Assembly (NCBI GenBank): GCA_035084275.1
Contig: JAYJKW010000399.1
Span: forward strand, 496,001-560,000
Direction of reading: 5' to 3'
DNA: 64,000 bases
Source: Hydrolagus colliei
Taxonomy: Eukaryota
Under the pieces are notes generated by a model. The model saw nothing but the letters and a program-made list of their open reading frames with translations. It had not been told where the DNA came from and made no database searches. Shown here piece by piece: positions 248-14,551 of the stretch; within the stretch, counting starts at the first letter, position 1, and each line of letters begins with the position of its first letter. A program made the position numbers and the translations under genes.

Positions 248-334
248 GCTGGGGGGCAATAATCTGGGAGATTCTGGAGTGAAGTCACTGTGTGAGGCTC
301 TGAGGAACCCGGAGTGTAAAATACAGAGACTGGG
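248..334 (+). CDS. NLR LRR exon, 87 nt ([29 protein letters not shown])
   Basis: tgtccag|G ... GG|gtaggt; open frame, one 29-aa RI-like repeat. Confidence 0.85.
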
Positions 335-3300
335 GTAGGTAACAGACTGTCATCAGAAACGTACTGACTCTAACTGACTTTGTCTGTCTGTGTGCCTGTG
401 TGTGTGTGTGTGTGTGTTTCCGTCAGTCTATCTGGCTGGCTGGGTAGGTTTAGGTGTGATTGAGTTAGCGTGAGTCATGTGAAGGGTTGGTTTATTTGTG
501 TGTGTATTAGTCCCTTCGAGTCGGGTCTGCCATTTAACACGAACACTTAACTGAAGCTCAACTAAACCTAACAATCCCAATTCCTCGCTTTCTTCCCATA
601 TCCCTTGATACCTTGACCAACGAAGCATCTAGGTAGTGTGTTTGTTTGTGCATATGTATGGTCAATGCTAGTGGATGCATGTGGGTGTGGGGGGCGGGGG
701 AGGGGGTGGGAGGGGTGGAGGTGGGAGGGAGCGGGTGGAAGGGTCGGCGGATGTGGGTGACGTGTGTACATTTATGTGTGTATATTTGATGTATGTGTGT
801 ATGTTTGGTGTGTGTTTGTGTATGTTTGATGTAGGGAGTGTGAATGTGTATGGGTTGTGTATGGCTCTGAAGCACTGAATATCCAGTGCGTTGTGATGTC
901 CTCAGGACGTGAAACGTTGCTATACACATGTAATTTTGTTGTTGTTGGTAGTGTATATTCGCGTGTGTGCATATGTGGTGTGTGTGAACGGATGTGTCTT
1001 TGAGTGTGTGTGTTTGTTGTGTGTCGTTTTTGTGTGTGTTGTGTGTATATGTTTTGTGTGTCTCTGTGTAGTGTGTGCATATGCTTGTGCTTGTGCATTT
1101 CATGTGTGTCGCTTTGTATGTATATGTGATGTGTGTATATGTACACATGTGCAGTGTACAGGCATGCATTTGTATGTGTGTTTATTTATGTCGGGGCATG
1201 TGTATATATTTATGTGTCAGTATGCTGCGTGACACTTTGTGTATATGAATTTTGTGTGTGAAAATTTGTTTGATTTTGCGTCTTGGATGTTTGTGGCTAC
1301 ATGTCGAAGTGCAACTCTGTGGTCAGCATGTCTTTATTTGTGTGTATATGTGTGCGTTTGTGTGTTGTCTGTGTATCTATGTGCGGTGTGTGTTTCTATC
1401 TGTGGTGTGTATGTGTGGGTCTGTCTGGCTGTCTGTCTGTCGATCGATCTGTCTGTCTGTCTATAAATTTGTGTATGTTTGTTGAGTGTGTTTGTGCATG
1501 GATTGTATTTTGTGTGTGTGTGAGTGCGTGCTATGTGATTGTGCGGCTCTGTATTTTTGTGTGTGTATCGCTCTGTCCTTCAGTATTTCTCTAAGCGGGG
1601 TTAGTTTTGTGTGTGTGTTTGTGTATCAGTCTGTTTTTTGTGTATCTGTGTGTGTTTTTGTGCGTATGTTTGCGTGTGTAGAAATCTGGAGCTCATGAGC
1701 TTTATTGTTTAGTATCTATATAATAACCACATTTGGGCAAAACAACTGCTTCAGAAAAAAGTCTACAAAACTATAATCGTGAGTTAGTGTGTGTCAGCTC
1801 AGACTCTGCAGTCTGTAGCCTGTATTAATAAAGCAATAGTAAAAATCCTTGCAAATGACATTCCTCTTTTCATGTGCTTTAGACTGTGTCTCAAAGCGCT
1901 TCACATAATATACTGTTAATTGATAAGTGTGTGGGCGAAATGCGGTAGCAAACACTATCTGTCGTGCATTGAAACGATCCATTTATTATTTTGTGAGGGT
2001 TTATTACTAGATATATGGAGTAAGGAAACCTGCCTGAACTCGAACAGAGTCTCAAGCTTGGAAGACGACTTGGCGACAAGTCCACTGAGTGGACTACAGC
2101 TCAGTGGGTAGAGCCCTCGCCTCTCAAGCGAGAGACATATGTTAGATTCCCGATTGGAGTGAAATCTTAGGCAAGTTTCCTTACCCCACGCACCTGTTTG
2201 CCACCAGTCAGCAGGTACACAGTTGCCAGTGGATTCACAGATCACTTTACCAGGGCTAATAATCCATTCAAACTATAATGTTCTGCCATAAAACATACAA
2301 TAAACTCACTTTAGACGTTATCCTATAAAGCGCTCGGAGACTCCTGGAGGAGATGATAAGTTCCTGTATCAATGCAAGGATTATTATTATATTGTATATT
2401 ATATCTGTGTATCATGAAACCCTCTCAATCCCCCTCACTGGACACAATGACTGTCTGTGGATCATTTCCATCACTGTATCCGCTAGTGGCTTCCAACGCC
2501 TCTTCCTTCCCTGGGAGACTCCTGCAGTGAGATACAGCGGGTTATATACACTGTATTTACTCTGATCCCTGTTATGTGTCTGTATCTCTGTTCTCCAGGC
2601 TGGGAACTGAAAATCTGACAGCTGATTGTGCCGAGGATCTGATCTCCACGCTCAGCACAAGCAGCTCACTGACACAGCTGGACCTGGGCCATATTACACT
2701 GGGAGATTCTGGAGTGGAACGACTGTGTGAGGCTCTGAGGAAACAGGAGTGTAAAATACAGATACAGAGGAAAGTAACAGACTGTGTCTCCAGAGATTGT
2801 GGGTGTATGAGAGCAGGAGAGAGAGAGATACTACATGAGAGTGGAAGAGGGAGAGGGTGAGATTGAGGGGGAGACTGTTAACAAGAGGGGGAGAGATACA
2901 TAGAATTAGCAATGACAAAGAGACAAATATAGAGTTCGAGTAAGACAGAGTTACTGTGCGAGACTGTTAAACTGGGGAGAGTCTAACAGAGAGAGGGAGA
3001 GTGGCAGATAAAGAGTCTGAGAGACAGTTACTGAAAGACAGAGTGAGACTGTGAATGAGATTGTAAGCGAAATAGAGAAAGAGACGCACAGAGAGAAACT
3101 GATAGAGAGACGGTAATTGAGAGAGAGACAGCGAGACTGTAAGTGAGAGAGAGACACTGAGAGAAAGAAGCTGAGATAGTCAAGAGGGAGAGGGAGAGAA
3201 GTATGGATAAATAGAGGGAGGGAGAGAGAGGGAGTGGGGGAGAAGTACGGAAACACAGACAGAGAGGGAGAGATAATAATAGAGACACCGAAATAACCGC

Positions 3301-14100: not shown

Positions 14101-14551
14101 TGCACAGTAACAATCTGACCGATGGCTGCACTGATGATCTGGTCTCCGCTCTCAGTACAAGCCGCTCACTGAGGGGGCTGAGCCTGGGGTCTAACTCCTT
14201 CACAGACGCCTCTGTCCCCGCTCTCCGCCGCCTAATACTGACCTGCACCAGCCTGGAGCTGATCTGGTGAGTGTTTGTGTCAGTGTTTAATGTGATAAAC
14301 ACACAGAGAACGGGGCTGGTTATCGGGATGGAAACAGTTTGAGGGGATTTATTGATTGATTAACCTGCGATTGAAGAGTTTCCAGTTTATATTGTGATCA
14401 GATGGTTATTTGCTGTTTAATGTGTTTCAGGCTTGAGAGGAATCAGTTCAGTTCAGACGGACAGAGGCAGCTGACGTCACTGGGGAAATCCAGAGCTTGG
14501 CTGACAGTGTGTGTCATTGCGCTGGAAGAATTTTTGAGACATTTTTGGTAG
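248..14551 (+). CDS. 3' (LRR-encoding) part of an NLR-family gene (NACHT/LRR protein, NLRP/NLRC3-like; RI-type LRRs); 5' exons including NACHT lie upstream of the window
   Basis: Series of AG..GT-bounded 87/171/168-nt phase 2-2 exons encoding [28 protein letters not shown] and LxxNxLTDGCxxDLxSALS repeats. They end in a terminal exon ([17 protein letters not shown]...) with TAG at 14549-14551. No NACHT exon is in the window, so NLR identity is inferred from LRR type and exon architecture. Confidence 0.8.
630..1690. repeat. TG-rich low-complexity / degenerate (TG)n microsatellite
   Basis: Continuous imperfect tgtg runs; source of spurious H/T- and C/V-rich ORFs. Confidence 0.9.
1835..2075 (-). 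mobile_element. Degenerate tRNA-derived SINE with L2-like tail (minus strand), head-to-head with the SINE at 2098
   Basis: aatccttgca..aaagcgcttcaca..gtgggcgaaatgcggtagc..ggagtaaggaaac, as in other copies (e.g. 50050-50375). Confidence 0.6.
2098..2390 (+). mobile_element. tRNA-derived SINE (A-box agctcagtgggtagagc; L2-like 3' tail); paralogous copies at about 7422-7720 and 10538-10835
   Basis: tRNA-like head and tail aagcgctcggagac...atcaatgcaaggattattatt. Confidence 0.7.
2599..2769 (+). pseudogene. NLR LRR exon, 171 nt, with mutated splice donor (pseudo-exon)
   Basis: ctccag|[58 protein letters not shown]. The donor reads GAAAGT where the paralogous exons (8087, 11203) read GTAAGT. Confidence 0.75.
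3566..3652 (+). CDS. NLR LRR exon, 87 nt ([29 protein letters not shown])
   Basis: tatccag|G ... GG|gtaagt, open frame. Confidence 0.85.
4687..4857 (+). CDS. NLR LRR exon, 171 nt ([57 protein letters not shown])
   Basis: atgcag|C ... GG|gtaagt; matches ORF 4670-4861. Confidence 0.88.
4880..5405 (+). mobile_element. LINE-2 (L2) ORF2 C-terminal fragment
   Basis: [62 protein letters not shown]; absent at the equivalent position of the other tandem units. Confidence 0.9.
6292..6776 (+). mobile_element. Young 5'-truncated CR1 LINE 3' end with (ATTCTATG)3 tail and TATGATAG target-site duplication
   Basis: [65 protein letters not shown] at 6284-6291 and 6769-6776; empty site at about 9857. Confidence 0.93.
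7370..7436 (+). pseudogene. Truncated 87-nt-type LRR exon fused to a SINE head; in-frame TAG
   Basis: tatccag|[18 protein letters not shown] then QLSG* (TAG 7434-7436) from SINE sequence gctcagtggttag. Confidence 0.75.
7916..8086 (+). CDS. NLR LRR exon, 171 nt ([57 protein letters not shown])
   Basis: ctccag|G ... AG|gtaagt; open frame but degenerate LRR consensus. Confidence 0.75.
8869..8955 (+). CDS. NLR LRR exon, 87 nt ([29 protein letters not shown])
   Basis: ctccag|C ... GA|gtaagt, open frame. Confidence 0.85.
10486..10552 (+). pseudogene. Truncated 87-nt-type LRR exon fused to a SINE head; in-frame TAG (duplicate of 7370-7436)
   Basis: gtccag|[22 protein letters not shown] (TAG 10550-10552). 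Confidence 0.75.
11032..11202 (+). CDS. NLR LRR exon, 171 nt (near-identical duplicate of 7916-8086)
   Basis: ctccag|G ... AG|gtaagt; ORF 10970-11206. Confidence 0.75.
11982..12068 (+). CDS. NLR LRR exon, 87 nt ([29 protein letters not shown])
   Basis: gtccag|G ... GT|gtaagt, open frame. Confidence 0.85.
12250..13930. repeat. 1.7-kb polypyrimidine (CT-rich) low-complexity tract
   Basis: Strongly C/T-dominated + strand with recurring ccccagctc motifs. Confidence 0.9.
14099..14266 (+). CDS. NLR penultimate LRR exon, 168 nt ([56 protein letters not shown])
   Basis: ctccag|G ... TG|gtgagt; ORF 14082-14270. Confidence 0.88.
14431..14551 (+). CDS. NLR terminal coding exon ([39 protein letters not shown])
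   Basis: tgtttcag|G, same phase as preceding exons, TAG 14549-14551; ATTAAA candidate polyA signal at 14608-14613. Confidence 0.8.

Follow-up and report, generated by a model that had tools for sequence, protein, structure and literature searches.

TRIM proteins and butyrophilins are thought to recognize intracellular ligands via their B30.2 domains, and NLRs via their NACHT and leucine-rich repeat (LRR) domains. Exchange of such modules is not without precedent: TRIM5alpha and TRIMCyp are reportedly E3 ligases of the RING-B-box-coiled-coil (RBCC) type in which B30.2 was exchanged for another pathogen-binding domain, said to be a single-domain swap in one gene. Here, a 64,000-nucleotide (nt) stretch of the genome of the cartilaginous fish Hydrolagus colliei (hereafter the window; G000:C265:496001-560000, forward strand of contig C265) was analyzed, which carries an array of LRR exons that an initial annotation had assigned to an NLR gene. 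The array is probably the 3' half of a chimeric butyrophilin, in which B30.2 has been replaced by an NLR-derived LRR arc that likely serves as an intracellular ligand-binding module. Coordinates without a prefix are window positions, window base 1 being C265:496001.

In zebrafish, exchange between NLR and TRIM modules has been described for NLR-B30.2 proteins and finTRIMs (PMC4852459, PMC2657112), with big clustered expansions and positive selection on the C-terminal module. Zebrafish NLRs gained B30.2 and their LRRs were called not particularly variable (PMC4852459), while B30.2 is the selected recognition module of fish TRIMs and has been proposed to select substrates in fish and mammalian antiviral TRIMs (PMC2657112). 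In the Hydrolagus genome, LRR tails are found on both butyrophilin and TRIM genes (BTN-LRR and TRIM-LRR, respectively); module exchange and clustered expansion are likewise seen, but here the LRR tail moved out of the NLR into the place of B30.2, and selection acts on the tail itself. The cap exon (described below), the cassettes and the last exons of these tails come from the expanded NLRP3-like NLRs of cartilaginous fishes (PMC8455134; P0043, P0125, P0129). Unlike those NLRs, the LRR-tailed genes have no NACHT domain, so that no ATP-driven oligomerization would be expected of them. The frame-preserving 171-nt exons with borders inside a beta-strand are those of NLRP and RNH1 genes (PMC6642158), and symmetric LRR exons as such are therefore already known; what differs is that they sit on butyrophilin or TRIM heads, with one to 10 cassettes among paralogs, and, compared with the reported TRIMCyp case, that a repeat scaffold is involved on dozens of genes.

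Gene structure and identity

The initial annotation had proposed to extend the sequence upstream in search of a NACHT exon. This extension met six other exons, all on the plus strand: a 58-nt signal peptide exon of phase 1 (C265:485230-485287), a 348-nt immunoglobulin V (IgV) exon (C265:487439-487786; Pfam V-set, E=9e-14), a 276-nt butyrophilin immunoglobulin C (IgC) exon (C265:488663-488938; PF22705, E=6e-22), a 120-nt transmembrane (TM) exon (C265:490764-490883), a short 18-nt juxtamembrane exon (C265:491994-492011), and a 223-nt "cap" exon derived from a NACHT exon (C265:492831-493053). The IgV, IgC, TM, and short exons are of phase 1-1 and the cap is of phase 1-2, so the phase series along the gene reads 1,1,1,1,1, changes from 1 to 2 in the cap, and continues as 2-2. 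The six exons and eight or nine full-length LRR exons form one open frame through to the stop codon, and the predicted product, summed from exon sizes, has 730 amino acids (aa) without the LRR exon E2 and 787 aa with it. It is predicted to be a type I single-pass membrane protein with about 15-17 cytoplasmic LRRs of the ribonuclease inhibitor (RI) type.

Two NACHT-exon proteins used in tblastn searches matched the upstream region only over their final 73-79 residues. In the 31 kb upstream, nothing but the last 73 residues of an intact NACHT exon from the most closely related subfamily was matched significantly, and no match to PF05729 was listed at the gene locus (95 of 130 genome candidates scored). 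Nor was B30.2 found on the plus strand from C265:484000 to the window end, using a query that detects this domain in TRIM and TM paralogs. Where an NLR would have an N-terminal effector of the PYD/CARD type, a signal peptide, two Ig domains, and a TM segment stand; NLR-type features are confined to the tail, with its RI-type LRRs on symmetric 87- and 171-nt exons. Compared with butyrophilins of the IgV-IgC-TM-heptads-B30.2 layout (paralogs on C431, C265, and C38), the window gene has the same signal peptide, IgV, PF22705-type IgC, TM, and short-exon phases, but about 15-17 RI-type LRRs instead of B30.2, a cytoplasmic domain that is usual in butyrophilins, not universal. Its ectodomain nests among B30.2 butyrophilins of the same genome in a 20-row ectodomain tree. 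The gene is thus predicted from its exons to be a chimeric butyrophilin with an NLR-derived LRR tail and a surface location, and not an NLR.

The LRR cassette array

Re-reading of the window confirmed the 11 LRR units and the terminal exon of the initial annotation. Downstream of 1..247, where the intron behind the six upstream exons ends, the plus strand carries E1 (87 nt, 248..334), the first cassette of the gene, E2 (171 nt, 2599..2769), E3 (87 nt, 3566..3652), E4 (171 nt, 4687..4857), the truncated E5 (7370..7422), E6 (171 nt, 7916..8086), E7 (87 nt, 8869..8955), the truncated E8 (10486..10538), E9 (171 nt, 11032..11202), E10 (87 nt, 11982..12068), a penultimate LRR exon of 168 nt (14099..14266), which is a fixed part of the tail in complete paralogs, and a terminal coding exon ending at the stop codon (14431..14551); an ATTAAA motif at 14608..14613 (+) is a candidate poly(A) signal. 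Nine of the 11 units are full length (87, 171, or 168 nt), and all are of phase 2-2 with AG acceptors. A GT donor is present in eight of the nine, the exception being E2, which has an open frame and the donor GA. The 10 possible junction codons encode S, R, D, E, G, V, C, and W and never form a stop, which bears out the proposal that the cassettes can be joined in frame; their assignment to the symmetric RI type, a known one (PMC6642158), also holds.

In the two stumps (starts 7370 and 10486), cassette sequence gives way after about 53 nt to an inserted element, presumably the head of a tRNA-like short interspersed element (SINE). Because of this SINE-like cut, and because no in-frame donor was found in their sequence, E5 and E8 are most simply read as dead intronic relics. 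Intact and damaged units are indeed interleaved, as first described, whereas the conclusion that exon skipping is required does not follow, since donorless exons are simply intronic. Growth of the array by tandem duplication, also suggested at the outset, is visible: 6769-9159 and 9857-12270 are 92.6% identical over 2.4 kb, E8 and E9 being duplicates of E5 and E6 (one 3.1-kb duplication took the stumps along with E6/E7), and three units of 1.6 kb resemble one another at 81-84%. E6 and E9 are one residue apart, as are E1 and E10. At 39812-39873 (+), a degenerate copy of the terminal LRR exon (79%) stands by itself.

Butyrophilin paralogs

A genome search with the IgV exon gave 11 close loci, three of them with an LRR tail: the window gene, its 98.5% twin, and a gene at C357:257k. 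The twin is a copy of the whole gene over 35.5 kb, located 1.45 Mb away on C265, with the same three lesions and differing flanks, which argues against the assembly artefact raised as a concern in the initial annotation; a false duplication behind the twin is not strictly excluded. In the C357 gene, all 14 exons are intact, with six cassettes of a different set and a more divergent cap. A 3' open-frame scan of five of the 11 IgV loci revealed this BTN-LRR gene, three with B30.2 (one of them broken), and one with neither, and two C38 stretches have butyrophilin exons with B30.2 too. IgV identity to close non-twin paralogs is 67-83%. Genes with a TM, a coiled, a short, and a B30.2 exon were also observed at C265:1104500-1108000, C336:594k, and C265:424k, and no Ig exon was found in the upstream DNA fetched for them.

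Origin of the cap exon

The cap corresponds to the 3'-terminal ~220 nt of a NACHT exon from an NLR, placed behind a foreign phase-1 acceptor. Its nucleotide identity to the 3' ends of NACHT exons of one NLR subfamily is 73-81% (six loci compared; at the cap, identity to the NLRs of this genome is given as 73-82%), and in five of the six loci the match begins 3 nt past the acceptor and runs into the following intron. The ~110 nt preceding the cap are unmatched in the six NLR loci, yet common to the caps fetched. A candidate origin of the acceptor as the NACHT exon's own, after an internal deletion, was rejected for lack of a match in these loci.

Paralogous butyrophilins have a phase-1 B30.2 exon at the place of the cap. 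Homology of the window gene to B30.2 butyrophilins ends ~70 nt past the 18-nt exon, whereas homology to TRIM-LRR genes continues through the cap. Recombination would have placed the NLR tail behind the phase-1 acceptor and made it a drop-in substitute for the phase-1 B30.2 exon, the exon that it replaces, given what the paralogs carry there. In the cap tree, a single origin appears in 42% of bootstrap trees, although the caps fetched have the acceptor region in common.

TRIM genes with LRR tails

A genome search for the cap (150 of 165 candidates scored, stand-alone caps tallied by hand) revealed at least 68 stand-alone caps in short open frames, none of the 68 with an internal stop, the remainder being NACHT-exon ends or fragments. 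Three of them sit behind butyrophilin ectodomains. Among 25 non-butyrophilin caps read upstream, 24 are preceded by RING-B-box exons and one by a TM exon. The TRIM-LRR exon order is RING-B-box, 96, 231, 23, and 80 nt, an optional 243-nt coiled exon, an optional 18/21-nt exon, and the cap; on one locus, the head matched Pfam RING (E=4e-15), B-box (E=2e-10), and TRIM_CC (E=1e-3, below cut-off). The TRIM exon set (RING, B-box, and coiled coil in order) is present in 16/16 loci, and the 5' half is open at canonical borders in nine of these, while five have an altered donor on the optional phase 1-1 coiled exon and are open if it is skipped or another donor is used. TRIM-LRR proteins are predicted to be E3 ubiquitin ligases.

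Many TRIM-LRR genes share the short exon and its intron with butyrophilins, and all six ordinary TRIM-B30.2 genes compared are without it, which suggests that the LRR tail passed from a butyrophilin-type gene to TRIMs. Once on TRIMs carrying the butyrophilin short exon and intron, it would have multiplied. Non-butyrophilin tails were read downstream in 38 cases, with 32 complete in the fetched DNA; these have one (21 tails), two (eight), or three (three) cassettes, and 26/32 passed every exon check. Longer tails have 4, 6, at least 6, at least 8, and at least 8 cassettes, and one tail has no cassette within 20 kb.

The 243-nt phase 1-1 coiled-coil exon (L060:6037-6279) has 73 genome matches and occurs in TRIM-LRR genes, one TRIM-B30.2 gene (C50:84k), and TM genes; distant copies adjoin GBP-like exons and a 1,196-aa open frame on C24. 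The match of the TRIM-LRR coiled-coil exon to GBP_C is weak (E=0.0015, below cut-off), and no GBP was among its PDB matches. At two other loci (L098, C38:238-248k; C508:18-28k), a TRIM RBCC is followed by the coiled exon and a hydrophobic TM-like exon, and these are possible membrane-anchored TRIMs.

Selection on the LRR tail

Cap, first cassette, 168-nt exon, and 24 terminal codons (183 codons in all) were aligned for 31 of 34 complete genes. Thirty predicted concave-face codons, namely the xxLxLxx positions, were fixed from the LRR motif. On these strand codons, the proportion of nonsynonymous differences (pN) is 0.237 (95% 0.18-0.29), versus a synonymous proportion (pS) of 0.046 over all sites and a p of 0.031 in the last intron, with an excess of amino-acid change by permutation (p=1e-4). 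A codon model gave an omega of 7.8 for them (2dlnL 58 versus omega=1), and of 7.9 with three junction codons removed; the RING omega is 0.31 (13 genes). All 31 concave strings are different, and variation at the top-ranking sites falls in codon positions 1 and 2, position 3 being almost fixed. About 33 stops would be expected on the tail tree if it were unconstrained; one stop (common to two of the dropped genes) and one frameshift were seen. Family-wide, the codon split by each phase-2 junction itself encodes a residue predicted to lie on the concave face, and no site in the alignment varies more than the one preceding the 168-nt exon.

Among database proteins, those most closely related to the tail over a single stretch are from Callorhinchus milii. 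An AlphaFold model of one natural tail counterpart from this species (P0055; pLDDT 88.6), rather than of the spliced chimeric protein, shows an RI-type arc with the xxLxLxx motifs on its strands and matches the structures of NLRP1-LRR and ribonuclease inhibitor. Together with the codon data, this suggests that the predicted binding face of the tails is diversifying rapidly.

Relatives in other species

Word-indexed protein searches with the IgV and cap exons, which are weak searches, gave no match. A cap profile search found mainly unrelated multi-LRR proteins. One of its 150 matches is a BTN-LRR protein and none is a RING plus B-box protein; the RING/U-box-LRR matches looked up are rotifer and metagenome proteins, and no TRIM-LRR protein was found in other species within this limited search reach. 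The BTN-LRR match is a knifefish RefSeq model named "ribonuclease inhibitor-like" (XP_076842216) with an IgV-IgC-TM-LRR order. A follow-up search gave 18 proteins, including Ig-plus-LRR clusters in Brachyhypopomus gauderio (five) and Electrophorus voltai (two, P4O66_020752/3), and an Astyanax mexicanus model is IgV-TM-LRR, with IgV only. These fish BTN-LRR models are known from automatic NCBI annotation only. The gymnotiform models likewise combine IgV-IgC-TM, a segment resembling a NACHT-exon end of teleost NLR type, and RI-type LRRs; they differ in that their ectodomains group with teleost butyrophilins and their LRRs look teleost-type.

In the ectodomain tree, the BTN-LRR label requires three changes, and the BTN-LRR genes of this genome fall together with the B30.2 butyrophilins of the same genome, set off by a 100/100 branch, which points to independent origins; on these sequences, the electric-fish fusion apparently arose independently. 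A single ESM Atlas cluster (51 members, V-set 98%, LRR_6 100%, Chordata, score 0.84) is a lead only, as it is possibly the query's own. No description of BTN-LRR or TRIM-LRR proteins was found in the open full-text literature by titles and abstract beginnings, a scope outside which subscription journals lie; the whale-shark NLR table and the domain-pair lists of PMC11788884 could hold such proteins. In an Alosa sapidissima gene model (P0171), a butyrophilin IgV-IgC-TM is joined to a full NACHT domain, possibly a membrane-anchored NLR or a gene-model fusion.

Neighboring loci

A neighboring NLR at C265:440694-463973 (-) (L014-L016) combines a NACHT exon that is open over 605 aa with six 87-nt cassettes and the same pair of last exons. 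Between immune genes, a 579-aa open frame (C265:435219-436955, minus strand; L016-L017) is presumably retroviral pol-like (RNase H/integrase). Within the window, single-exon open frames at 29800-30831 (-), 45794-46760 (-, two frames), and 62864-63808 (+), one of them apparently frameshifted, are taken to be G protein-coupled receptor-like, of the GPR139-like type.

Alternative explanations

Exon order, phases, the open frame, the absence of NACHT and B30.2, the cap homology, and the tails on butyrophilin and TRIM genes can all be read in the DNA. Several points nevertheless weigh against a chimeric butyrophilin whose LRR arc binds intracellular ligands. The butyrophilin-to-cap splice is predicted from DNA, the one run covered (X1) behaving like genomic contigs and carrying no information about expression or isoforms, and protein searches of weak reach found no chondrichthyan BTN-LRR or TRIM-LRR protein. 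Three of the 11 units in the window gene are damaged, two of the 16 TRIM-LRR 5' halves are frameshifted, and near-identical copies on small contigs among the 68 caps may be retained haplotypes. Three complete genes were dropped before the omega fit because of a stop or broken cassette. The other 153 codons have an omega of 1.4, which is not below 1 and gives no net purifying signal; 30 framework codons were uninformative; and gene conversion between paralogs can inflate both the tree-based omega and the expected-stop figure. As 29 of the 31 aligned genes are non-butyrophilin tails, the selection signal tells more about the family than about the window copy, whose own cassettes are too similar for a selection test. 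The ligand is putative, and a ligand-binding role is the most likely one for the arc.

Among the alternatives, it is unlikely, though slightly less so than the others, that the tails are decoys or regulators binding the expanded NLRs of the host, by membrane tethering (BTN-LRR) or ubiquitylation (TRIM-LRR). The tails derive from a family with 95 or more NACHT matches in the genome (95 of 130 candidates scored) and are interspersed among its members, NLR cages use LRR-LRR contacts, and co-diversification with NLRs could likewise give an omega above 1. However, a pattern centered on the concave face is what host-pathogen conflict would be expected to leave, and B30.2, whose place the tail takes, is the recognition module on which selection acts in fish TRIMs (PMC2657112).

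A little less likely still is that rearrangement in an immune cluster prone to recombination left the window copy as a by-product that is decaying or not transcribed, with TRIM-LRR relatives possibly working. Damage to the array, the existence of broken relatives, and the number of BTN-LRR genes (only three, two of them 98.5% twins) would fit. Against this, every lesion lies in dispensable symmetric cassettes, neither the twins nor the C357 paralog show damage in the six upstream exons or the final two, and pN is below pS in IgC, TM, E6/E9, and E1/E7, albeit with small counts.

Finally, the NLR of the initial annotation, with cassettes combined by alternative splicing into many receptors, is very improbable and its NLR label refuted: although all cassettes of the window gene are frame-compatible, LRR exons of human NLRs are alternatively spliced (PMC6642158), and five RefSeq isoforms of the knifefish BTN-LRR differ, some at least, in LRR content, both NACHT and an N-terminal effector are missing upstream, the nearest upstream NACHT exon lies 32 kb off and belongs to the other strand, where it has LRR exons of its own, the window cassettes are near-duplicates, and 21/32 complete non-butyrophilin tails carry a single cassette.

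Some cassette skipping in the window gene is plausible and may tune length, since joining near-copies in different numbers would mostly change that. With respect to a Dscam-like receptor, in which splicing of distinct alternative cassettes yields many isoforms, the window array offers cassettes that are frame-compatible but near-identical. The diversification of immune receptors in a cartilaginous fish that was initially proposed is retained, and its source shifts from cassette combinations to gene multiplication and concave-face substitutions. We infer that the repertoire is diversified chiefly by paralogs and by point changes on the predicted concave face, and at most secondarily by splicing.

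Implications

If the LRR arc took over the role of B30.2, it would pick targets for RING-dependent ubiquitylation in TRIM-LRR proteins and sense a cytosolic ligand in BTN-LRR proteins. Tentatively, and with a chance somewhat below even, the latter may relay such sensing to the ectodomain or to a partner butyrophilin, an outward signaling that we liken to that of BTN3A1/BTN2A1. The chances are about equal for and against the wider proposal that the arc is a portable, positively selected module replacing B30.2, which would provide some 60 TRIM-LRR ligases as counterparts of TRIM5-type restriction factors and BTN-LRR proteins coupling cytosolic recognition to the surface, the butyrophilin version having evolved at least twice, here and in otophysan teleosts. 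Compared with the known fish NLR-B30.2 fusion, this genome shows the exchange running the other way, across a whole gene family and with strong signs of diversification on the predicted binding face, which may explain some "ribonuclease inhibitor-like" and "NACHT-less NLR" annotations in fishes. The apparent repeated origin suggests that LRR and B30.2 are interchangeable as sensors, and TRIM-LRR and BTN-LRR proteins likely represent an overlooked class of immune sensors.

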